Assembly: GCA_038844785.1 (NCBI GenBank)
Contig: JAWBRA010000003.1
Location: forward strand, 5,363-69,362
Reading direction: 5' to 3'
Length of the DNA: 64,000 bases
Origin: Candidatus Caldarchaeum sp.
GTDB taxonomy: Archaea > Thermoproteota > Nitrososphaeria_A > Caldarchaeales > Caldarchaeaceae
A model generated the notes under the pieces. That model saw only the letters and a program-made list of their open reading frames with translations. It searched no databases and had not been told where the DNA came from. The first letter of the stretch is position 1, and the number at the start of each line of letters is the position of its first letter. Shown here piece by piece: positions 246 to 52,569 of this stretch. A program made the position numbers and the translations under genes.

Positions 246-806
246 ATGGCCTCTTTCGTCAGGCTGGCAGCTGGGGCGTTAGTAAGCCTCGCCATAATAC
301 TGCTGCTATCTACCGTTGAGCTTTCCTTCCCCCAACCCCTTCAGGCTGTGGTTATCTCGTTGGTCTTGACGGCGGTGGCTTCAGGTTTTGTAGCAGGCTC
401 GGCAACCACGGCCGCCGCCGGAACTTTCATCGGCGGCTTTGCAGCACTTGTTCTCGCGATACTCTGGAACGTAACGCTCTGGTCGCCTTCTCCTGTTCCA
501 TCCGACATGCCCATCATTAGAACACTCCTACTGGGTGGAGCAGCTGTCCTAGCGGCGGGTGTCGGCTTTGTCAGGGGAAGCATACTCCGCAAAACCCCCG
601 TCCCCACTGAACCGCGGAAAGAACAGTCTCAAGCCGTGCAACCTCAGGCTTCAAGCCCGGCCACGTCCCCACTTATCCCCGAATCCAAGCCTACCCCCGT
701 TGTGTTGGAGGTTGAGAATAGAATATGCAAGTTCTGCAGCAGCGTTATACCTGCTGAGTCTGTGTACTGCCCCATGTGTGGGGCTAAGCTGGTTGAGGAA
801 GAGTGA
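246..806 (+). CDS. multi-pass membrane protein with C-terminal CxxC...CxxC zinc ribbon
   Basis: Hydrophobic N-terminal two-thirds, a Pro/Ser/Thr-rich linker, and a C-terminal CKFC...CPMCG motif. Its stop overlaps the start of the next gene. Confidence 0.45.
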   Translation: MASFVRLAAGALVSLAIILLLSTVELSFPQPLQAVVISLVLTAVASGFVAGSATTAAAGTFIGGFAALVLAILWNVTLWSPSPVPSDMPIIRTLLLGGAAVLAAGVGFVRGSILRKTPVPTEPRKEQSQAVQPQASSPATSPLIPESKPTPVVLEVENRICKFCSSVIPAESVYCPMCGAKLVEEE

Positions 807-3664
807 ATTGGATGTTCTCAGAAGAGACGCTTTCCGTCCTAAACCTGCTGGTTAAGCCTTTAAAAGATGCGGTGGTGGAGAAGTTTGGAGAGCTGACTCA
901 GCCGCAGCTGAAAAGCATTCCTAGAATACTGGCGGGAGAAAACCTTCTGCTGATGGCTCCCACCGGCACGGGGAAGACGGAAGCGGCTTTGATACCTTTG
1001 CTGAACAAAATTATTTCACAGCCTAGCTTTGAAGGGGTTAAGATTCTTTACATCACCCCTTTGAGGGCGTTAAACCGCGATCTGCTCGAAAGGATAGAAT
1101 GGTGGGCTGGAAGGTTTGACATGACCGTAGCTGTTAGACACGGTGATACTGCTCAGAGGGAGCGTAGAACGCAGACACTCATCCCGCCGACCATCTTGAT
1201 AACAACGCCTGAGACGCTTCAAATACTTTTGACTGCTAGGTTGTTCCGCCAGCATCTCCGCAGGGTTGATGCTGTTGTAGTGGATGAGGTCCATGAGCTT
1301 GCTGGAGATAAGCGTGGCAGCCAGCTCTCCGTGGCTTTGGAAAGGCTGGCAGAGATTACAGGAAGAGATTTCCAGCGGATTGGCTTGTCGGCTACGGTTG
1401 GAAGCCCTGAGAAAGTGGCAGCCTTTCTCGCAGGTGTTGGAAGAAGCTGTAGCGTGGTAAGAGTACCCGTGGTAAGAAACCTGCATGTCGCCGTCAAATA
1501 TCCAGAGCCAGGCCCGGAAGACTTCGACCTCGCCGAAAAACTATCAATATACCCAGACGTGGCGGCTAGGATGAACTTGATAAAGTCTCTCGTAGAATCA
1601 CATGAATCAACTCTTGTCTTCACGAACACAAGACCCCTTGCCGAGATTCTCACCAACAGGTTTAGGGCTTGGGATGAAGCAGCTCCGATAGGGATTCATC
1701 ACGGAAGCCTTTCGAAAGCAACACGCGTTGGGGCTGAGCAGGCGCTGAAGATGGGAGGGCTTGCGGGAGTTGTATGCACTTCGTCGCTCGAAATGGGTAT
1801 AGACGTGGGAAGAATAGAGCTTTGCATACAGTACAACTCTCCAAGAGAGGTAACCAGGCTCGTGCAGAGAGTGGGCCGCAGCGGCCACTCAATCCACGGC
1901 ACAGCTAAGGGGGTCATAATCGTCACCGATTCCGACGATGCTTTGGAAAGCGTCGTCATAGCCAGACGTGCTTTGAAAGACCTCATAGAAGATGTCGAAA
2001 TCTTCGAAAACAGTTATGACGTTCTCGCACACCAGCTGGCTGGGCTTGTAATCGAGAAGAAAGAGATAGGGTTGGATAAGGCGTTAAACATCTTTAGACG
2101 ATCTTATTGTTTTAGAAAGCTCACGATGGAGGAACTTCTGAAAGCCGCACAGCATCTGGAGAAGCTTGGAGCCGTGATGAGAACCAGCGACAACGTCGTG
2201 ACACAGGGGCCGAAAACATCCATCCTCTACGACTATTACTTCAACAACCTCTCGATGATACCTGAGGAGAAACAGTATCTAGTGGTTCTTGAATCGACGG
2301 GCGAGCCTATAGGCATACTTGACGAAGAGTTTGTGGCTGAGCATGGAGAGCCGGGGACTCGTTTTATCTTGATGGGGAGGGCTTGGGAGATAATTCAAAC
2401 AGCCGGCGAAAGAATTTATGTTTCCGCTTTGGATAGTCTCGAAGGCTCAGTCCCCTCTTGGGTAGGCGACGAGATACCCGTTCCCTTCGAAATAGCTGAG
2501 GAAGTGGGAAAAATACGTAGGCTGTATGCCGAAGCCGTTGCCAGAGGAAGTTCAGACGATGTTTTACAATCCTTGGCGGAACATTACATGACCGACAGGT
2601 CTTTGCTGGAAAAATCCCTACGGGAGGTCAAGATTCATATCGATAAAGGTCTCCCCGTGCCCTCGGATAAGACTGTCGTTTTAGAGGAGACGCCTGAGTA
2701 CATCGTTTTACACATATGCGGCGGGCTGAAGCCGAACAGGACCATAGCCCGTGTGCTGGCTTACGTTCTCTCGTCAAAGATAGGTGCTGTAGTGACTGTG
2801 CAGCAAGACCCTTATCGGATAGTTTTCAAAGGTCGTGAGCTCAGCCTCGAGCTTGTGGCAGAAGAGCTTAGGAACCTAGCTCGAGATAATCAATGGCTGA
2901 AGCTTGTGGAGAAGGCTGTAGAGTCTTCGAGCCTGTTTAGGAGAAGGCTTGTCCACGTGGCGCGTAAAATGGGCGTTTTGAGCAAGGAGGCTAGCATACT
3001 GGACGTAAGCGCGACAAAACTAGCTGAAATGCTGCGTGACACCGTTGTCTACGAAGAGGCTTTAAAACACTGTCTAGCCGCCGATTTCGACCATGAAACG
3101 TCTTTCAAGCTGATTAACAAGATTTCAACAGGCGAGACCTCTCTCATCCCGGTAAGGGTTGAGGAACTTTCTCCGCTGGCCAGGTTGACGGTCAGCAGGT
3201 ACGCCAGCGACGTAGACGTGATTGTTTCTGAAAGGTTGCAGAGGCTTGTGGTCAACGCTGTAAGGGGGAGGCTTAACAACGAGCTTGTAACCCTAGTGTG
3301 CACATCATGCTGGCAGTGGTATGCACGGGTTGCTGTGAAAGAGCTGGATACGAAGCCTGTCTGCGGTGCTTGCGGGTCTTCTTCGCTCGGGGTTTTGAAG
3401 CCCGAGCCTGAAGAGGTACTGAACCTGCTAGCACGCCGTGGGAAACCGTCGAACAGTAAAGAGCGGCAGCTTAGAAAACAGGCTCTGAAGACCGCCCCCC
3501 TAGTAGCGAAGTATGGGAAGGCCGCTGTATTCACATTGGCGAGCCATTATCTCGACGTGGAGGACGCTGCCAAGATCCTTGAGAATGAGTCAAGCCTGGG
3601 AGTGAGGCTTGTAGAGCTTATCGTGGAGGCTGAGAAAAAGAGGCTTCAGGAGCTGTTTAAGTAG
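803..3664 (+). CDS. lhr: Lhr-type large ATP-dependent DEAD/DEAH-box helicase
   Basis: Walker A MAPTGTGKTEAA, a YITPLRALNRD motif, a DEVH box, helicase C motifs (HHGSLS, QRVGRSGH), and a C-terminal zinc ribbon CTSC...CGAC. At 953 aa it matches archaeal Lhr in size. Confidence 0.8.
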   Translation: MNWMFSEETLSVLNLLVKPLKDAVVEKFGELTQPQLKSIPRILAGENLLLMAPTGTGKTEAALIPLLNKIISQPSFEGVKILYITPLRALNRDLLERIEWWAGRFDMTVAVRHGDTAQRERRTQTLIPPTILITTPETLQILLTARLFRQHLRRVDAVVVDEVHELAGDKRGSQLSVALERLAEITGRDFQRIGLSATVGSPEKVAAFLAGVGRSCSVVRVPVVRNLHVAVKYPEPGPEDFDLAEKLSIYPDVAARMNLIKSLVESHESTLVFTNTRPLAEILTNRFRAWDEAAPIGIHHGSLSKATRVGAEQALKMGGLAGVVCTSSLEMGIDVGRIELCIQYNSPREVTRLVQRVGRSGHSIHGTAKGVIIVTDSDDALESVVIARRALKDLIEDVEIFENSYDVLAHQLAGLVIEKKEIGLDKALNIFRRSYCFRKLTMEELLKAAQHLEKLGAVMRTSDNVVTQGPKTSILYDYYFNNLSMIPEEKQYLVVLESTGEPIGILDEEFVAEHGEPGTRFILMGRAWEIIQTAGERIYVSALDSLEGSVPSWVGDEIPVPFEIAEEVGKIRRLYAEAVARGSSDDVLQSLAEHYMTDRSLLEKSLREVKIHIDKGLPVPSDKTVVLEETPEYIVLHICGGLKPNRTIARVLAYVLSSKIGAVVTVQQDPYRIVFKGRELSLELVAEELRNLARDNQWLKLVEKAVESSSLFRRRLVHVARKMGVLSKEASILDVSATKLAEMLRDTVVYEEALKHCLAADFDHETSFKLINKISTGETSLIPVRVEELSPLARLTVSRYASDVDVIVSERLQRLVVNAVRGRLNNELVTLVCTSCWQWYARVAVKELDTKPVCGACGSSSLGVLKPEPEEVLNLLARRGKPSNSKERQLRKQALKTAPLVAKYGKAAVFTLASHYLDVEDAAKILENESSLGVRLVELIVEAEKKRLQELFK

Positions 3665-4262: not shown

Positions 4263-5010
4263 CCTCCTTCAAAACAATAACCATGGAGGCGACGTTTCTC
4301 CTCTCAGCCTTAGACTCAAAGGGTTTAAGCGTCACCTTTCCGGTGATAGGGTTTCTCACAACTTCAGCCAAGCCTTCGCTGACTATGAAAGCTGTCAGAT
4401 AAGCCCTTTCAACCGTTTTCTCCACCCCTTCCCTGGATATGAAGGAAGCATAGTCGACTTCACCGTTCTCGTCTCTTGAAGCAAGCATTTCACTATGCAG
4501 CTTCTTCAGCTCAAGCTCTATCTCCTCTCTCTGGCTGAACGTGTTCAAAGCCTGGCGGAAATCAACTTCAGGGCCTATCTCTGTGGTTGCGGAAGACTTT
4601 AGATTGCGGGTCGGCAGGCTTAGAAAATATTCCAACCCCATCGCCACCATGCCGCGAGTAAGCTGCTCAGCGGACACGATGGGTCTCCAGCTTGATACAA
4701 GAGCTTGGGCCAGCGATTTTTTATCAGCTGACAAAATCTTCAACACTATCAACTGCGTGTCAACAAGCAGGGAAGAAGCTCTGTCTTTAAGCCATTTATG
4801 TTGCAGGGCAATGACTAAGGCAACCCTGTAGAGCGTTTCCGCGTCCAACGTCAGAATCTCTGTATCGCTGGTCCTCTCCACGATCGACCTCAGCTTGGCC
4901 AAAATAGCCTTCACATCAACGCTGTAGGGGTCGGCTCCGGTCTTTGCTATCGTCTCGCAGAGTGAAATCAGCCTTTCCAGCTCATCCTTAGCCAGCTTGA
5001 CGCTCGTCAC
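4246..5010 (-). CDS. kleisin (ScpA)-like protein
   Basis: 254 aa with an N-terminal helical region and a C-terminal winged-helix-like segment (VDYASFISREG..AYLTAFIVSEGLAEVV) resembling the ScpA C-terminus. It is translationally coupled, by overlaps, between the SMC-like and ScpB-like genes. Confidence 0.45.
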   Translation of the reverse strand: MTSVKLAKDELERLISLCETIAKTGADPYSVDVKAILAKLRSIVERTSDTEILTLDAETLYRVALVIALQHKWLKDRASSLLVDTQLIVLKILSADKKSLAQALVSSWRPIVSAEQLTRGMVAMGLEYFLSLPTRNLKSSATTEIGPEVDFRQALNTFSQREEIELELKKLHSEMLASRDENGEVDYASFISREGVEKTVERAYLTAFIVSEGLAEVVRNPITGKVTLKPFESKAERRNVASMVIVLKEGAVLV

Positions 5011-6742
5011 TAGAAAACACCTCCGCCGCAGCCGGTATCGAGACGACGGACCTTCCCTTCACGTTCTGTACTAGGATGGTATTCATGTCCTGTCTGTATG
5101 GAACCCTGCCAGGTGTTATGATGATGTATTGTGTGTCACCGTCCTGTTTGGCTGTTGACGTGAGTATGTTGATTATCCGCTCGCGGTTTAGCGGGTCGAG
5201 GTGAACGTCGAATTCGTCGACCGCCCTGAAGGGTGATTTTATGTATTTTTGAAGCGCTAGGAGAAAAGCCATCGTCGCAACTATCCTTTCGCCGCCGCTC
5301 TGTGTGTGAGCGTTCAGCAAAGTTGGTTCAACACCTCTGAACCCCACGTAGATCTCCACCGATGCTTTGTCTATGTCGTTCAAGTTCCTCAGCTCTAGTT
5401 TCCCTGAACCTCCTACAACGGACAGAATTTTTTGATACTCTGGTTCGACGGCGGCTATGAGGCTGCGTAGGAACTCACGCCACTTCTGCTTCCTGTACTC
5501 GGCTTCTTCGAGGGCTTTACGTGCATTTTCGCTCAGCTGGGAAGCTTTAAGCTCCGCCTCCCTGTACTTGGCTTCAGCAAGCATAAACATCTCCTCCGCC
5601 TGAGGTGTTGGATTGCCCATGGACGCAAGCTGCAGCCCCACAGCCTTCAGCTCTTCAGAGACTTCCAACGGCTTTCTCCCAGTATCTATTCGCGGCCCCT
5701 TCTCGGAAGCTTCCGAAACCCTTCTGGCCAGCTCCTTCTCAGCCGCAGTCAACTCATATCTTAGATCTCTCAACTCGGATTCTCTGATCTCTTTTCTCTC
5801 GAGGCTCCTGCCAAGCCTTTCAGCAGTTTTTACCAACTCGTTTAATTTTTTCGCCAGTTCTTCTTCGGAGGCTCTTTCGCTAAATTGCTGCAGAAGCCTT
5901 TGGGAGAGAATGTTAACATCCTCCGAAATTCTTCCAGCCTCTTTCTCAAGCTTTTCAACCTCTTCGTTCAGCATGTTTATCTTGTCTTGGATTCTATCCC
6001 TAGATTTCTCAGCCTCTTTGACCAACGACCAGAGATACTCTGACTCGAGCAGCTTTTTACGTTCCTCAAGCTGTTTAATGATGGTAAGCTTCTGGTATTC
6101 CTCCCGCCAGTAATCTACTGCTGCCCGTGCGTCCTCCAAAGTCTTCCTTATCACAGCTTCTTCGGCCAATAGAGACGAGAGCTTGGTCTCTGCCTGCTTT
6201 ATCTTCTCCCTCAGACCGGCAGCGCCGACAGCCTCCTCGATCATAACAAGCTTCTCCCTACTGTCTCTGCTAACAAACTGTTCAATCATGTTTTGATGCA
6301 TTATTATTAGCATGTTGTCTGGGTTTATCCCAATCTTTGAGAGAAGGTTCTCGACCTCGGCTTTGGTCTTAAACTTGTTGTTTACATAGTGCCAGTATTC
6401 GCCGTTCTTTTTCAGAAACCTAGCGATTGTAACGGAGTCGGAGGAGATTGTGGGTATGGGGCGTTTTCCGTCAACAGGTCTGTTGTCGAAGACCACTGCA
6501 ACTCTGGCTGCGTCCATGCCTCGGCGTATCAGGTCGCTCAACCTCTGACCCCTCTCAGTGTAGGTCTGCCCCAAAGCCACTGAAATCGCCAGCAGAATCG
6601 ATGACTTACCTGCTCCGTTTGGGCCAACGACCACGTTCAACCCAGGTTGAAGAGAGATTCGACTATATTCATGGGACATGAAGTTCTCTAAGATAACCTC
6701 CTTGACGTAAGGCCTTGCCCTCCCGCCTTCACCCGCTGACAA
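4988..6742 (-). CDS. half-size SMC-like ATPase (N-terminal Walker A head, short coiled coils, C-terminal signature/Walker B head)
   Basis: N-terminus VVGPNGAGKSSILLAI (Walker A). C-terminus SGGERIVATMAFLLAL (ABC signature) and RAVDEFDVHLD (Walker B/D-loop). A long charged heptad-like middle. Only 584 aa, with no CxxC zinc hook and no classical hinge. Confidence 0.7.
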   Translation of the reverse strand: MSAGEGGRARPYVKEVILENFMSHEYSRISLQPGLNVVVGPNGAGKSSILLAISVALGQTYTERGQRLSDLIRRGMDAARVAVVFDNRPVDGKRPIPTISSDSVTIARFLKKNGEYWHYVNNKFKTKAEVENLLSKIGINPDNMLIIMHQNMIEQFVSRDSREKLVMIEEAVGAAGLREKIKQAETKLSSLLAEEAVIRKTLEDARAAVDYWREEYQKLTIIKQLEERKKLLESEYLWSLVKEAEKSRDRIQDKINMLNEEVEKLEKEAGRISEDVNILSQRLLQQFSERASEEELAKKLNELVKTAERLGRSLERKEIRESELRDLRYELTAAEKELARRVSEASEKGPRIDTGRKPLEVSEELKAVGLQLASMGNPTPQAEEMFMLAEAKYREAELKASQLSENARKALEEAEYRKQKWREFLRSLIAAVEPEYQKILSVVGGSGKLELRNLNDIDKASVEIYVGFRGVEPTLLNAHTQSGGERIVATMAFLLALQKYIKSPFRAVDEFDVHLDPLNRERIINILTSTAKQDGDTQYIIITPGRVPYRQDMNTILVQNVKGRSVVSIPAAAEVFSSDERQAG

Positions 6743-22069: not shown

Positions 22070-22175
22070 TTGGGCCCGGTGGGATTCGAACCCACGGCCA
22101 CCAGGTTATGAGCCTGGCGTTGCAGAAATATTACAAGCGGTAATATTTTCTCTGACCTAGCTGAGCTACGGGCCC
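22070..22175 (-). tRNA. tRNA with CAU anticodon (elongator Met or Ile2 type) carrying a roughly 30-nt intron at a non-canonical position (D-arm/position 25-26); coordinates approximate to 1 nt
   Basis: The reverse complement gives GGGCCCG/CGGGCCC acceptor stem, GCUC..GAGC D-stem, CCAGG-CUCAUAA-CCUGG anticodon arm, GUGGG-UUCGAAU-CCCAC T-arm and discriminator A. CCA is not encoded. An extra 30 nt (AAAAUAUUACCGCUUGUAAUAUUUCUGCAA, forming a 9-bp hairpin) sits between the D-stem and anticodon stem. Confidence 0.75.
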
Positions 22176-48069: not shown

Positions 48070-48658
48070 TTTCTCTGCCCTTGTTCGGCTGTTTACGGAC
48101 CTTATAAAGCCAGCGGCAAAGCTTGCCCACGGAAACACCTCTGTGGCTTATCATGTTCTTCTCATCTGAGGACATTTGGGCGAACGTCTTGTTTTTTCCC
48201 TCGGGTATGAAGACGGGGTCGAAGCCAAAACCTTTCGTCCCCGACGGCTTAACCGCGATAAATCCGCGGCATACCCCCTCGAACGTTTTAGGAGCTGAAA
48301 CCCCATCATAATAGCAGACAGTAGACTGGAAGTATGCTCGCCTGTCCTTGCCGTCCAACATTTTCAATAAGTTTAGAAGGCCTATAGTGCGGTAAACGTA
48401 TGAAGAGTATGGTCCTGGGAACCCTCCTAAAGACTTTATGAAAAGCCCTGCATCCTCGACGAAAACCGGACGTTTTAGGATTCTGTATGCATGCAAGGCT
48501 CTGAAGACAGCTACTTCTGAAAGGCTGTCCGACTGTATCTCCATCGTTTCCCCGTAAAAAACCTTCAACCTCATACCATGTTTCTTGAAAATTCCTCTGA
48601 CCTCGCGGGCCTTACCCCTGTTGGATGTGACGAAGGTGACGTCAGCTTTTGACGACAT
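48062..48658 (-). CDS. non-canonical purine NTP pyrophosphatase (ITPase, Ham1/RdgB)
   Basis: TSNRGKAREV...GFGFDPVFIPEGKNKTFAQMSSDEKNMISHRG. Confidence 0.8.
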   Translation of the reverse strand: MSSKADVTFVTSNRGKAREVRGIFKKHGMRLKVFYGETMEIQSDSLSEVAVFRALHAYRILKRPVFVEDAGLFIKSLGGFPGPYSSYVYRTIGLLNLLKMLDGKDRRAYFQSTVCYYDGVSAPKTFEGVCRGFIAVKPSGTKGFGFDPVFIPEGKNKTFAQMSSDEKNMISHRGVSVGKLCRWLYKVRKQPNKGRENG

Positions 48659-49286
48659 ACCTGCCTCGCCTTCTTATCTCGCTAACCTTTTTCAAAATTT
48701 TTTCAACCTGGCCTTCTCCCGTAACAGAGCGATAGCCATCTAGGAAAAGCTTAACAAAGCTTGAGGATAAGTTGGGAAAAGTGCTTGCGGCAGACCTTTC
48801 TAGAAGATGGATGTCAACGGCCTTCTCCTCCAGCTCCGCGTTGAAGACGCTCAGGCCAAAATCCACCAACCATAGGCCGTCCGAACGGTCCACTATGATG
48901 TTTGAAAGCGTCAAGTCTCCATGTGCGATGTTTAGGCTGTGCATAAGCCCAACAATCTCTCCAAGCCGTACGGCTCTGTCCAAAGGGTTGGATACGAACC
49001 GAAGCTCAACCCCTTCGATCATCTGCATGTAGATGGCTGACTGCTTTAGGTCTAGGAAAAGCAGCAACGGTGCCGGAACGCCGTTCTCTGACAGGTATGT
49101 CAGCGTCTTAGCCTCGTGCACTGTTCTGTTGCGTCTAACTCTAGCGTCTATTGATTCTTGCCTATATCTTTTCGGTAGCCTGTGTTTTTTTACAAGTTTG
49201 ACGTCTTTCCAGAACGCTTCCCTAACCACAGCTTCAGCGCCTACCCTGATTACCCTGCCTTCAACAAAGTCTATCAACTCCAACAA
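48642..49286 (-). CDS. bud32: KEOPS kinase Bud32 (Kae1-associated, RIO-like)
   Basis: LIDFVEGRVIRVGAEAVV..., HGDLTLSNIIV, and LVDFGLS kinase motifs. The probable TTG start forms a TTGA overlap with the kae1 stop. Confidence 0.75.
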   Translation of the reverse strand: MLELIDFVEGRVIRVGAEAVVREAFWKDVKLVKKHRLPKRYRQESIDARVRRNRTVHEAKTLTYLSENGVPAPLLLFLDLKQSAIYMQMIEGVELRFVSNPLDRAVRLGEIVGLMHSLNIAHGDLTLSNIIVDRSDGLWLVDFGLSVFNAELEEKAVDIHLLERSAASTFPNLSSSFVKLFLDGYRSVTGEGQVEKILKKVSEIRRRGRYVVKS

Positions 49287-50257
49287 ACCTCGACCTCGTC
49301 CACCCTCATCCTTGGCTTGACATAGCTTTCTTCCACGTTGACAAGCTTTCCGCATTTGTAGTGGAGGTAGCCGTTCCAAGCTATCATAGCTCCGTTGTCT
49401 CCTGCGTACTCGTCAGGGACAACGTGGAGTGATGCGCCTCTGTCACCGCACATCGTCTGAAGCATTTGGCACAGACGTTTGCTGCGGGCCAGTCCACCGA
49501 CCAACAAAACCTCAGATTTGCCCGACATGGCTAAAGCCCTTTCCGTCACCTCCGTTAACATGCTGTAAACTGTCTCCGTCAACGAGAGACACACGTCTTG
49601 AACAGGTACGCCTGTTGACAACAGGTTTTCGGCAGCGGTCAGAATGCCTGAAAACGAGACATCCATCCCTTTGACTCTGTATGGGAGCTCGTAGACGGTG
49701 CTACCATCGAGCGCGTAGATTTCAGGAGCCGGCATCGGGCCGATGCCTGCAGTTATCCCAAAGGAGTCCAAACAGTTTCCAGCGGCGATGTCAAGGGTTT
49801 CCCCTAGAATTCTGTATCTTTTCTCAACCAACGCCGCTATCAAAGTGTTACCTCCAGCCACGTACAACACCACAGGGTCTCGGCATCCGGTGACAAGTTT
49901 TCCAACCTCTATGTGAGCAACCCCATGGTTTACGGCTACCAATGGCTTCTTCAGGGCTAGCGCTAAAGTTCTTGCAACCGTGGCCCCTGTTCTGAGGCAA
50001 GGGCCCATACCTGGACCCTGGGCGAAAGCTACCACATCTATGTCTCCAGGAGCTATGCCCGCTGTTTGAAAGGCTTCGGATAGGGCTGAAGGCGCGTTGG
50101 CTGCATGCTTCTGCGCGGCCTCACGGGGATGTATACCGCCTTTTTCAGGCTTGTAAACCTTTCTAACGTTAGACAGTATCTCTCCGTCTGAGGTTACAAT
50201 TCCGACTCCAAACGTGTGGGCCGTAGACTCTATGCCAAGAACCAGGGTTTTCCTCAC
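49274..50257 (-). CDS. kae1: tRNA threonylcarbamoyl-adenosine synthase Kae1 (TsaD)
   Basis: GIESTAHTFGVGIV...VNHGVAHIE...ASKR-like motifs. 327 aa, not fused to bud32. Confidence 0.9.
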   Translation of the reverse strand: MRKTLVLGIESTAHTFGVGIVTSDGEILSNVRKVYKPEKGGIHPREAAQKHAANAPSALSEAFQTAGIAPGDIDVVAFAQGPGMGPCLRTGATVARTLALALKKPLVAVNHGVAHIEVGKLVTGCRDPVVLYVAGGNTLIAALVEKRYRILGETLDIAAGNCLDSFGITAGIGPMPAPEIYALDGSTVYELPYRVKGMDVSFSGILTAAENLLSTGVPVQDVCLSLTETVYSMLTEVTERALAMSGKSEVLLVGGLARSKRLCQMLQTMCGDRGASLHVVPDEYAGDNGAMIAWNGYLHYKCGKLVNVEESYVKPRMRVDEVEVCWS

Positions 50258-50316: not shown

Positions 50317-52569
50317 ATGAGTTTCCGCGAACCCATCGTCGTGGTGCTTGGCCATGTCGACCATGGGAAATGCGTAAGCCCGGAGACGATGATAAATGTG
50401 GAAAACATGGGATGGTTGAGAGCCGAAGAGGTGTTTAAAAAGTTTGCGGTGGGAGGCAAAGTTCTTAATTTGGCTGACGGCGTGGCCGTCAGACCAGCTA
50501 AACCACCTGTGCTTACAACGTTATCGAGAAAGCTTGAGCCAAGACGTGCATGCGCATCACTGATCTGGCGTAGAACCCCGCCTCCGGAAATGGTGAGAGT
50601 TCATTTCACCAACTCGGAGTCTGTGGAAACCACGCCCGAGCATCCTTTCCTAGTGGAAAAACGAGGAGTGGTGCGGTATGAAAGGGCTGACCGGCTTAAA
50701 GTCGGCGACAACGTTCTCGGCATGTCAAACAAGTCTCTAACGCTTAATAGAATTGAGCAGGTGGAAACTTTCAAGCCGAATTACTCCTACGTGTATGATT
50801 TCACCGTGCCGGGAACCCATCATTTCCTCGCAGAGAACATCTTTCTCCACAACACATCGCTTCTGGATAAGATGCGTGGCACGGTGGTGGCTGCGAGAGA
50901 AGCGGGAGGCATTACACAGCACATAGGAGCCACTTTATTTCCGGTGAAAGCTATAGAAGAGACCTGCCGACTCCTGCTGGGAGAGCTGAACGTCAGGCTG
51001 GAAATCCCGGGAATCCTATTCATAGACACACCTGGACATGCTGCTTTCTCAAACCTAAGAAAAAGGGGTGGGTCGATAGCCGACATGGCTATCCTTGTCG
51101 TCGACGTCATGAAAGGTGTTCAGGAACAGACGAAGGAAAGCATCCAGCTTCTCAGGTCTAGGAAAACGCCTTTTGTTGTTGCGCTCAACAAGATTGACAT
51201 GATACCGGGATGGAGGCCAACACCCTCAGCCCCATTCCAGAAAACATACGCAAACCAGCAGAGGGGGGTGGCGGATGACCTCGAAAATAGAGTCTACAAC
51301 CTCATGGGCGACCTTAGCTTTCTAGGCTTCAAGTCCGACCTCTACACGCGGATAAAATCCTTCACCGACACCGTAGCCATAGTTCCCGTCAGCGCTAAAA
51401 CAGGCGAGGGGATACCGGATTTGCTGCTCCTCATTCTCGGGCTGGCCCAGCAGTTTATGAAACAGCGTCTGAGACGTGTGTCCGGGCGTGGAGAAGGCGT
51501 TATACTTGAGCTGGTTGAGGAGGAGGGGCTTGGCGCTACAGCCAACGTAATACTTCACGCGGGAGCCCTCAAGGTTGGAGACAGAATAGCTTACCTGAGC
51601 AGGAATGGCCCAGCTGTTACAAGGGTCAAAACACTTCTAATGCCAAAGCCCTTGGAAGAGATAAGAGACCCGCGCGAAAGGTTGAGGAGTGTGGAGAGCG
51701 TACAGGCCGCTGCAGGCGTGAAGCTTGTAGCAGAAGGGTTGGAGGAGGCGGTCGCAGGCTCGCCTGTGCTGGTTGTCGTTAATGAGTCAGAGGACCTGCG
51801 GAGGATTGCTGAAGAAGCTCAAGAGTTCATGATTTCTACTGACAAGACGGGAATAGTTATCAAAGCAGACACGCTGGGCACGCTGGAGGCGGCGGTCACA
51901 TACCTGAGGGAGAAGGGTGTTCTCATACGTGTGGCTGACATCGGAGATGTATCAAAAAAGGACGTTGTCGAAGCGCATGTGGTTGGACAGAAGGACGAGC
52001 TTCTGGGCGTCATTTTGGCCTACAACGTCAAGGTTGACCAAGAACTGGAAAAGGAAGCCAACAGCAGAGGTGTTCGAGTCTTTAAAGGGGATGTGTTGTT
52101 CAGAATTGTGGAAGAATACGAGAGATGGGTTGAGGAAACCGTACGTCAAAAACAGTTGGCGGAATTCGAGACTTTGACAAAGCCGGGTAAGCTGAAGGTG
52201 CTGAAAGACTATATCTTCAGAAGAAGCGAGCCCGCGATAGTTGGCGTAGAAATTCTTGCAGGCGAGATAAAGCCTGGCATCCGTCTAGTTAACACAAACG
52301 GGAAAATCGTCGGCACAGTATCCCAGCTGCAGGACAGGGGGCAGCCTCTGCCTTCAGCCGGTAAAGGAGCTAAAATAGCGATATCGATAAAGGAGGGGGT
52401 AGTAGGACGAAACATACACGGCGACGAGGTTCTATACGTCTATGTTCCAGAACGGGATGCGAGACAGCTTTCAGCAAACTACGCAAGCTTACTGGATGAA
52501 GCCAGTTTGAAGACGCTGGAGGAATTTACGGAGATAATGAGGAGACAAAACCCCCTATGGGCACGGTAG
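50317..52569 (+). CDS. infB: translation initiation factor aIF5B (IF2 homologue), containing a mini-intein in the P-loop
   Basis: Extein: VLGHVDHGK|...|TSLLDKMRGTVVAAREAGGITQHIGAT, followed by the G domain, domains II-IV and the C-terminus. Confidence 0.9.
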   Translation: MSFREPIVVVLGHVDHGKCVSPETMINVENMGWLRAEEVFKKFAVGGKVLNLADGVAVRPAKPPVLTTLSRKLEPRRACASLIWRRTPPPEMVRVHFTNSESVETTPEHPFLVEKRGVVRYERADRLKVGDNVLGMSNKSLTLNRIEQVETFKPNYSYVYDFTVPGTHHFLAENIFLHNTSLLDKMRGTVVAAREAGGITQHIGATLFPVKAIEETCRLLLGELNVRLEIPGILFIDTPGHAAFSNLRKRGGSIADMAILVVDVMKGVQEQTKESIQLLRSRKTPFVVALNKIDMIPGWRPTPSAPFQKTYANQQRGVADDLENRVYNLMGDLSFLGFKSDLYTRIKSFTDTVAIVPVSAKTGEGIPDLLLLILGLAQQFMKQRLRRVSGRGEGVILELVEEEGLGATANVILHAGALKVGDRIAYLSRNGPAVTRVKTLLMPKPLEEIRDPRERLRSVESVQAAAGVKLVAEGLEEAVAGSPVLVVVNESEDLRRIAEEAQEFMISTDKTGIVIKADTLGTLEAAVTYLREKGVLIRVADIGDVSKKDVVEAHVVGQKDELLGVILAYNVKVDQELEKEANSRGVRVFKGDVLFRIVEEYERWVEETVRQKQLAEFETLTKPGKLKVLKDYIFRRSEPAIVGVEILAGEIKPGIRLVNTNGKIVGTVSQLQDRGQPLPSAGKGAKIAISIKEGVVGRNIHGDEVLYVYVPERDARQLSANYASLLDEASLKTLEEFTEIMRRQNPLWAR
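50371..50853 (+). mobile_element. 161-aa mini-intein inserted in the aIF5B GxxxxGK|T P-loop
   Basis: Begins Cys (CVSPETM...), has block B TTPEHPF, ends ...VYDFTVPGTHHFLAENIFLHN, and is followed by +1 Thr. There is no room for a homing-endonuclease domain. Confidence 0.85.

Follow-up and report, generated by a model that had tools for sequence, protein, structure and literature searches.

How does an archaeon translate with an initiation factor whose GTP-binding P-loop is interrupted by 161 residues, and is the interruption an intein? This question is raised by the ORF 50317..52569 (+), which encodes the 750-aa aIF5B of Candidatus Caldarchaeum, a hot-spring archaeon, and lies in the 64,000-nucleotide stretch of DNA analysed here (the window). 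The deposited protein name is only 'translation initiation factor IF-2'. Residues 19–179 of the precursor are very probably a class-1 mini-intein that excises itself, is vertically inherited and derives from a LAGLIDADG-bearing intein.

The aIF5B gene and its interrupted P-loop

The host was identified as aIF5B by the models TIGR00491 (723 bits) and PRK14845, 'intein-containing IF-2' (798 bits), as the first-pass annotation had proposed. The 161-aa insert reported there at 50371-50853 was confirmed to the base by the ORF translation: it comprises aIF5B residues 19-179, exactly 161 aa (483 nt). The order in the precursor is MSFREPIVVVLGHVDHGK / CVSPETM...AENIFLHN / TSLLDKMRGT. The insert separates the Lys and the Thr of the G1 motif, which agrees with its claimed position at the most conserved site of the GTPase. 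The following features were distinguished.

50317..50370 (+): N-extein, aIF5B aa 1-18, aligned N-terminally with intein-less orthologues and solved aIF5B structures
50350-50370 (+): first half of the G1/P-loop motif, GHVDHGK (G12-K18), which closes the N-extein
50371..50853 (+): putative class-1 mini-intein, HINT splicing domain only, 161 aa, 18.4 kDa (PF14890, TIGR01445, TIGR01443)
50371..50373 (+): Cys1 of block A, predicted nucleophile for the N-S acyl shift; invariant
50422..50493 (+): helix and two beta-strands, intein residues 18-41, between blocks A and B (DSSP)
50632..50643 (+): block B, T-P-E-H, with intein T88 and H91; T88, E90, H91 and P92 invariant
50725..50730 (+): probable vestigial homing-endonuclease insertion point, between intein S119 and N120 (alignment with P0021 and P0026)
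50797..50820 (+): block F (VYDFTVPGTH) with Asp143 (F:4) and His150 (F:13); V141-Y-D-F-T-V146 invariant
50848..50853 (+): block G, terminal His160-Asn161, with Asn at 50851-50853; invariant (TIGR01443, 25.6 bits)
50854..52569 (+): C-extein, aIF5B aa 180-750 and stop, aligned with intein-less orthologues
50854-50856 (+): Thr+1, predicted second nucleophile and P-loop Thr of GK[T]

The earlier claim that excision restores the G1 motif holds; the ending ...KTTLLD given with it does not, the real motif being GHVDHGKTSLLD. The alignment with intein-less aIF5B orthologues, proposed as a check, gave the same motif in P0018 and P0019, which lie at the syntenic locus with 78% extein identity and an identical gene neighbourhood; KTSLLD is thus also present in intein-less orthologues of Caldarchaeum's clade. 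Further intein-less sister lineages are P0022, P0025, P0027 and P0030. Since some orthologues are without the insert, the objection that all of them share it as a structural element fails, and its reading as an insertion survives. The product spliced in silico (589 aa) aligns without gaps across the junction with the solved aIF5B structures 5fg3 (2.9e-175) and 1g7r (3e-172).

There is no second aIF5B in the window, and a profile of 12 mini-inteins detected no second intein in its six-frame translation. An antisense ORF overlapping the C-terminal junction (50820..51110, 96 aa) was rejected as spurious because the opposite strand there is a strongly conserved coding region.

Intein family, fold and catalytic residues

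The insert scores above the cut-offs of the curated intein models: Pfam Intein_splicing (PF14890; 48.4 bits, cut-off 35.8), the N-terminal model TIGR01445 (35.3 bits, cut-off 24.5) and the C-terminal model TIGR01443 (25.6 bits, cut-off 15.6). PDB sequences matched by it include the Pho CDC21-1 intein (E=1.8e-20) and the Pho RadA intein (8e-13). AlphaFold predicts one compact HINT domain (pLDDT 96.4, pTM 0.89). The top 50 Foldseek matches of this model in the PDB are all HINT domains; the Pyrococcus abyssi CDC21-1 mini-intein (6rpp) is matched with a TM of 0.91 and an rmsd of 1.8 A. According to DSSP, the model has a helix (H18-26) and two strands (E30-34, E37-41) between blocks A and B; such an extension is described for CDC21-1 inteins and is typical of thermophile inteins (PMC6801210). 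An exhaustive HMMER search with the intein returned 485 relatives. Outside aIF5B, the best matches in a set of 1.84 billion proteins come from MCM inteins, located at GDPGxxK/C...HN/SQ. The match of the insert to the intein family is far beyond chance, and curated models, PDB inteins and predicted fold together bear out its earlier identification as a mini-intein.

The full class-1 residue set is present: Cys1, block B Thr and His, block F Asp, the terminal His-Asn and Thr+1. C1, T88, H91, D143, H160 and N161, as well as Thr+1, are invariant in 12 orthologous mini-inteins (34-90% identical), which covers all of the hallmarks listed in the first-pass annotation (N-terminal Cys, TxxH block B, terminal HN, +1 Thr). 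Cys1 is kept in both aligned endonuclease-bearing alleles too. His150 of block F is found in 11 of the 12; the exception is the closest allele, P0002 (96% identical), with Pro at this position, and therefore either H150 is not strictly required or the P0002 allele is impaired. Inteins of class 2 are without a position-1 nucleophile, and those of class 3 carry a Trp-Cys-Thr motif with Cys at F:4. The presence of Cys1 separates the insert from class 2, and class 3 is excluded because F:4 is Asp143, not Cys.

That protein splicing actually takes place, both as chemistry and in vivo, we infer from these residues; indirect support is provided by a dN/dS of 0.15 together with catalytic residue invariance. 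In-frame translation would yield an 83-kDa precursor with a split P-loop (GHVDHGK / intein / TSLLD). The N-S acyl shift at Lys18-Cys19 could be aided by block B Thr88 and His91, after which the hydroxyl of Thr+1 would attack the thioester, giving a branched ester. The block G Asn of inteins is the residue whose cyclisation releases the intein; here Asn161 would cyclise with the aid of His160 and His150, and the 18-kDa intein would be freed. An O-N shift would then form the Lys-Thr peptide bond. The end product would be an aIF5B of 589 aa (65 kDa) with its G1 motif, GHVDHGKTSLLD, intact.

Other P-loop inteins and the missing endonuclease

P-loops are a classic intein hot spot. The aIF5B P-loop insertion site is already known from other archaea, and the Caldarchaeum intein adds a further, ordinary case. 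InBase has IF2 inteins from Thermococcales and Methanococcales, which presumably occupy this same site. The NCBIfam model NF011418/PRK14845 covers intein-containing IF-2; its positions 24-130 align with intein residues 1-115, position 24 being Cys1. Archaeal aIF5B/IF-2 inteins of this type (P. abyssi, PRK14845) share host and insertion point with the Caldarchaeum intein, but PRK14845-type proteins are ~1050 aa long and have a LAGLIDADG endonuclease domain, whereas the present intein has 161 aa and none. The host lineages also differ: Caldarchaeales (Nitrososphaerota) here, Euryarchaeota for the known aIF5B/IF-2 inteins. A literature search found no paper describing the Caldarchaeum aIF5B mini-intein. 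With 15 inteins, aIF2/COG0532 is among the top archaeal intein hosts (PMC4760082), and it was in its 'mature (intein free)' form that P. abyssi aIF5B was studied structurally (PMC9226500). Inteins are also hosted by eIF5B, the eukaryotic orthologue, in Chytridiomycota and Glomeromycota (PMC5784728), that is, in eukaryotic hosts, unlike the archaeal Caldarchaeum intein.

Four proteins (P0146, P0149, P0151 and P0166; the first two are metagenomic aIF5B) have the same junctions, GHVDHGK/C...HN/T[TS]LLD, and match the Caldarchaeum intein at E=1e-15 to 4e-13. Its splicing domain appears homologous, by sequence, to the other inteins at the aIF5B P-loop site. MCM-a inteins score equal to or above these, and for this reason strict monophyly of the aIF5B inteins is not established. 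The best matches in both sequence and structure are the Pyrococcus CDC21-1 (MCM site a) mini-inteins 6rpp and 6rpq, which share the thermophile-type helix and two-strand extension; their host is different (MCM helicase, an AAA+ ATPase), and identity to the Caldarchaeum intein is ~28-33%. These mini-inteins are natural ones, 164-168 aa long, and follow the Walker A Lys (PMC6801210). The Pyrococcus horikoshii RadA mini-intein (4e2t, 4e2u, 2lqm) is likewise a hyperthermophile P-loop mini-intein (E=8e-13, TM 0.84-0.87), although its host is a recombinase; its conditional, extein-controlled splicing has been demonstrated experimentally (PMC4513877). Related inteins have been proposed to move from the P-loop of one protein to that of an unrelated one (PMC10710043), and the MCM/aIF5B relationship found here fits this proposal.

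No endonuclease family was detected in the insert by profile searches at E<=0.1, and the model shows one compact domain only, in line with the absence of a homing endonuclease claimed earlier. Endonuclease-bearing alleles with LAGLIDADG_3 (PF14528) occur at the same site in P0021, P0026, P0146 and P0149. The Caldarchaeum intein is colinear with the splicing domains of P0021 and P0026 (34% and 28% identical), and the LAGLIDADG-containing segments of these two, ~300-380 aa, fall exactly between ...GDxVL(GMS) and (NKS)L... in the alignment; in the Caldarchaeum intein this position is occupied by GMS/NKS only. The Caldarchaeum copy thus appears to have lost its endonuclease, and the mini-intein would descend from an intein that occupied this site and bore a LAGLIDADG domain.

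Current understanding is unchanged by this intein. In annotation, the mature factor should be given as 589 aa rather than 750 aa, and in phylogenomic marker alignments the aIF5B intein should be masked. One locus presents three allele types: a mini-intein vertically inherited across the clade, a nested intein-less lineage and endonuclease-bearing alleles. Together they could offer material for studying how the endonuclease is lost, how an intein is lost precisely and how inteins pass between P-loops (MCM, aIF5B). Being a compact thermophile mini-intein with Thr+1, the Caldarchaeum intein could also serve protein engineering as a reagent.

Descent, selection and alternative readings

Within the Caldarchaeales clade the mini-intein appears to be inherited vertically. 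Intein identity declines monotonically with extein identity, and NJ trees of intein and extein (bootstrapped with a numpy distance routine) have their major groups in common. The identical protein is found on 8 contigs, and related alleles in several MAGs. One Caldarchaeales sub-lineage would have lost the intein precisely; the intein-less lineage falls inside the clade with 54% bootstrap (100% for the inclusive clade), and with placement at only 54% the preference for loss over multiple gains is parsimony, not proof. Base composition speaks against a foreign origin: the intein, with GC 0.50 and GC3 0.55, matches both the extein (0.52 and 0.57) and the window (GC 0.50).

The dN/dS values are 0.146 and 0.16 for the intein versus 0.079 and 0.048 for the extein, and non-synonymous evolution of the intein is ~3 times faster. 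Purifying selection acts on the intein (dN/dS about 0.15); so low a value is expected wherever a domain is translated in frame within an essential protein, and alone is no proof of catalysis. The mini-intein is unable to home alone because it is without a homing endonuclease. Its maintenance could be explained by the inactivation of an essential gene that failed splicing would cause, and no other constraint is needed.

An unlikely alternative is that the intein has been domesticated as a conditional one, native aIF5B exteins holding the precursor inactive until temperature or another cue switches on translation initiation and GTP use. The intein would then control, post-translationally, how much active aIF5B is available and, through it, the joining of ribosomal subunits. 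The Pho RadA P-loop mini-intein, in which native exteins lock splicing in a temperature-dependent manner (PMC4513877), is among the closest solved relatives, and the case has been made that P-loop inteins are retained for adaptive reasons (PMC4760082). The persistence of an endonuclease-less intein under purifying selection while exteins of the clade diverged to 67-69% identity points the same way, but persistence and purifying selection alike are fully accounted for by failed splicing being lethal and precise deletions being rare. Conditional splicing is also opposed by the intein-free sister lineages (P0018, P0019, P0022, P0025, P0027, P0030), by the ~3 times higher non-synonymous rate and by the lack of a conserved extra Cys or metal site, internal Cys61 being variable among the 12 mini-inteins. 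A redox (disulfide) switch was rejected because the +1 residue is Thr and C61, the only internal Cys, is not conserved. By analogy with Pho RadA, long retention in Caldarchaeales through co-option, with native exteins gating splicing, for example by temperature, may be imagined, but we consider it improbable.

Self-excision is also preferred to the reading of the insert as a degenerate, non-splicing intein or a HINT-derived structural insertion, with the aIF5B copy either non-functional or working with the insert in place; this we hold to be very improbable. The endonuclease is gone and the block F His is substituted in one close allele, as such decay might predict, but the catalytic residues at the splice junctions and in blocks B, F and G are invariant across deep divergence, the ORF is intact and dN/dS of the insert is 0.15. 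In P-loop NTPases the Walker A/G1 Lys and Thr must adjoin for GTP binding, and the insert separates them, while purifying selection on the extein is still very strong (dN/dS 0.05-0.08) and the window offers no other aIF5B copy. Natural relatives of the intein, the CDC21-1 and RadA mini-inteins, do splice (PMC6801210). Scarcely credible is the reading of the insert as a HINT domain of bacterial-intein-like (BIL) or Hedgehog type, capable of cleavage only, or as an artefact of assembly or annotation. Lower in the Foldseek ranking, HINT domains of the BIL and Hedgehog types are matched as well, and Pfam PT-HINT scores 26.6 bits, slightly below its cut-off; yet the terminal His-Asn, the +1 nucleophile and the location in an essential protein's most conserved motif are hallmarks of inteins rather than of BIL or Hog domains, and the top sequence and structure matches are exclusively true inteins. 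Against an artefact, the same architecture is shown by many independent contigs and MAGs.

Host gene and insertion site

The aIF5B gene carrying the insert lies in housekeeping surroundings, and the features concerned are as follows.

50317..52569 (+), aIF5B ORF, 750 aa
50371-50853 (+), insert of 161 residues
upstream of aIF5B, divergent orientation: Kae1/TsaD and Bud32-like kinase
downstream of aIF5B: ribosomal proteins S6e and S24e
beyond S6e/S24e, opposite strand: DUF359, Spt4, Rpb7, PIN protein and aIF2-gamma

The assignment of the host to aIF5B in the first-pass annotation is upheld by curated archaeal aIF5B/IF-2 models, which match it end to end (TIGR00491, 723 bits, profile positions 2-591 of 591; NF011418/PRK14845, the NCBI model of intein-containing IF-2, 798 bits). 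GenBank already holds an identical protein (P0001, 'MAG: translation initiation factor IF-2 [Candidatus Caldarchaeum sp.]') from this lineage (Nitrososphaerota, Caldarchaeales, formerly Aigarchaeota). Residues 1-18 of the ORF finish in GHVDHGK, a Cys follows as residue 19 (nt 50371-50373), and the insert ends in ...AENIFLHN (last Asn at 50851-50853), followed by TSLLDKMRGT with Thr at 50854-50856. The coordinates, length and named residues claimed for the insert proved exact when the ORF was re-read. The sole correction needed concerns the restored motif, which had been written as ...KTTLLD; excision actually yields GHVDHGKTSLLD, and KTSLLD is also present in intein-less relatives of the same clade.

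Inteins have been recorded before at this position in aIF5B. In the NCBI intein-containing IF-2 model the intein starts at profile position 24, directly after the P-loop lysine. PMC4760082 counts 15 inteins in aIF2/COG0532 and ranks it within the top 15 intein hosts of archaea, the P. abyssi aIF5B studied structurally was the 'mature (intein free)' protein (PMC9226500), and inteins also occur in the eukaryotic orthologue eIF5B (PMC5784728). This intein would hold no surprise for a specialist; what sets it apart is that it is at once a natural mini-intein of 161 aa, an inhabitant of Caldarchaeales and vertically inherited across its clade. The literature search found no paper on inteins of the Caldarchaeales lineage.

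The Kae1/TsaD gene (49274..50257) and the Bud32/RIO-like kinase gene are separate, with no fusion (48642-50257 (-)). The mechanical kinase ORF starts at TTG, encodes 245 aa and runs 106 nt into Kae1; its real start probably lies further downstream, since called orthologues have 213 aa and overlap Kae1 by only ~10 nt.

Splicing domain and catalytic residues

Scored alone against curated models, the insert exceeds the cut-off for Pfam Intein_splicing (48.4 against 35.8 bits) and for the intein N-terminal (TIGR01445, 35.3 against 24.5 bits) and C-terminal regions (TIGR01443, 25.6 against 15.6 bits). The claimed absence of a homing endonuclease agrees with this search, in which no endonuclease family was detected in the 161 aa even at E<=0.1. 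The best matches among PDB sequences are the CDC21-1 mini-inteins of Pyrococcus horikoshii and P. abyssi (1.8e-20 and 1e-18); the P. horikoshii RadA intein matches at 8e-13. A very confident AlphaFold model, built with 12 orthologous mini-inteins as input (mean pLDDT 96.4, pTM 0.89), predicts a single, nearly all-beta domain, for which the top 50 Foldseek matches in the PDB are HINT domains only, led by PabCDC21-1 (TM 0.91, rmsd 1.8 A) and followed by RadA, TFIIB, VMA and PolII inteins. Between blocks A and B the model contains a helix (18-26) and two strands (30-34 and 37-41), an extension of the type described for thermophile inteins (PMC6801210).

In an alignment of 12 mini-inteins of aIF5B orthologues (34-90% identical to the window copy) only 24 columns are invariant. 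These include Cys1, Thr88 and His91 (block B, TxxH), Asp143 within VYDFTV (block F) and His160-Asn161 (block G), while Thr+1 is invariant across all aIF5B aligned; the hallmarks named earlier (N-terminal Cys, TxxH, terminal HN, +1 Thr) are thus present and conserved. The insert belongs to class 1, because Cys1 is present and F:4 is occupied by Asp, not Cys. Block F His150 is found in 11 of the 12. The sole exception, the P0002 allele (locus L001), which is the one closest to the window copy, has Pro (PGTPHF versus PGTHHF, corresponding to window 50818-50820); this allele may splice more poorly or use the adjacent His in place of the assisting block F residue.

We infer that the insert is self-splicing. 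By established intein chemistry, an N-S acyl shift at Lys18-Cys19 would be followed by trans-esterification by the Thr+1 hydroxyl, cyclisation of Asn161 and an O-N shift. The 83.1-kDa precursor would yield 64.8-kDa aIF5B and an 18.4-kDa intein (computed masses).

Orthologues, descent and alternative readings

Two relatives, P0018 and P0019 (78% extein identity, 589-592 aa), read GHVDHGKTSLLD. At the P0019 locus the genes follow exactly the order seen in the window and at loci L001 and L003, which carry the mini-intein. The relatives are thus true orthologues, distinguished from the window copy by a clean 483-nt insert. The condition proposed for refuting the intein, that orthologues share the insert as a structural element, is thereby contradicted. 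aIF5B can do without the insert and is restored when it is taken out: spliced in silico, the product aligns across the junction with no gap to the solved structures from Aeropyrum pernix (5fg3, 2.9e-175) and Methanothermobacter (1g7r, 3e-172).

Nei-Gojobori dN/dS was calculated for the window against two orthologous alleles.

Table. dN/dS of intein and extein
Region; vs L001 (P0002); vs L003 (P0003)
Intein; 0.146; 0.16
Extein; 0.079; 0.048

Purifying selection on the intein is clear, yet looser than on the host extein. Intein dS against the 96%-identical P0002 allele (window 50371-50853 vs L001 3055-3537) is 0.326 (30/113.5 sites), twice the extein dS of 0.167; stronger codon constraint on the extein, recombination or sampling noise could each account for this.

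Several results speak against a non-splicing structural insertion or a dead intein: the catalytic set is invariant, dN/dS is low, orthologues without the intein exist, and the extein is strongly constrained even though 161 residues part the Lys of its Walker A motif from the Thr. The His-Asn/+1 Thr junction and the order in which matches rank contradict a BIL or Hedgehog-type cleaving HINT domain. Curated intein models, the predicted HINT fold, catalytic residues and intein-less orthologues together bear out the mini-intein interpretation, and the element is very probably a true mini-intein of class 1, lodged at the P-loop site already known in aIF5B. Assembly artefact is excluded, as the insert recurs on many contigs. 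Splicing could possibly be conditional and regulatory, for which the related RadA P-loop intein offers a precedent; the persistence of the intein, the only other point in favour, is already explained by the lethality of non-splicing.

Intein and extein identities fall together (90/97, 62/88, 52/82, down to 34/69%), GC and GC3 of the two are equal, and their NJ trees recover the same major groups; the pattern is one of long vertical co-descent with the host. In the extein tree P0018/P0019 lie within a 100%-bootstrap clade whose other eight members carry the mini-intein, as does the sister clade P0013-P0016 (100% bootstrap). Branching inside the former clade is weakly supported (54%), so precise intein loss in the P0018/P0019 lineage is what we infer as the most parsimonious reading.

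More distant aIF5B proteins (P0021, P0026, P0146, P0149) have 460-540-aa inteins with LAGLIDADG_3 at the same site. Their extra segment follows ...GDxVL and precedes the final third of the splicing domain; at that point the window intein has GMS|NKS only, so the alignment makes the mini-intein best read as an endonuclease-deleted descendant of a LAGLIDADG-bearing element. Independent homing is no longer possible for it. Searched exhaustively with HMMER, a set of 1.84 billion representative proteins yielded 485 relatives at E<=1e-3, the top non-self matches being multi-intein MCM helicases (1.8e-26 to 2e-22). The matching MCM intein follows the Walker A lysine (GDPGxxK|C...HN|SQ) and so occupies the same Lys|Ser/Thr position as the aIF5B intein, which fits the published preference of inteins for P-loops, their commonest site (PMC4513877, PMC4760082), and possible movement of related inteins between P-loops of unrelated proteins (PMC10710043).

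Other features of the window

22071-22175 (-), tRNA (Rfam RF00005, 52.2 bits)
803-3664 (+), Lhr-type large DEAD/DEAH helicase, 953 aa, DEAD_assoc and WH_Lhr domains
4988-6742 (-), SMC_N/AAA_23 ATPase, 584 aa, Rad50/SMC-like

The helicase and the ATPase are repair genes of an ordinary kind, both free of inteins. ARAGORN reported no tRNA over the whole window. The Rfam tRNA has the anticodon loop CUCAUAA (anticodon CAU, Met or Ile2) and spans 105 nt against a 71-position model; its D-arm region runs to 46 nt compared with 13 in the model, which implies a ~33-nt intron at a non-canonical position.
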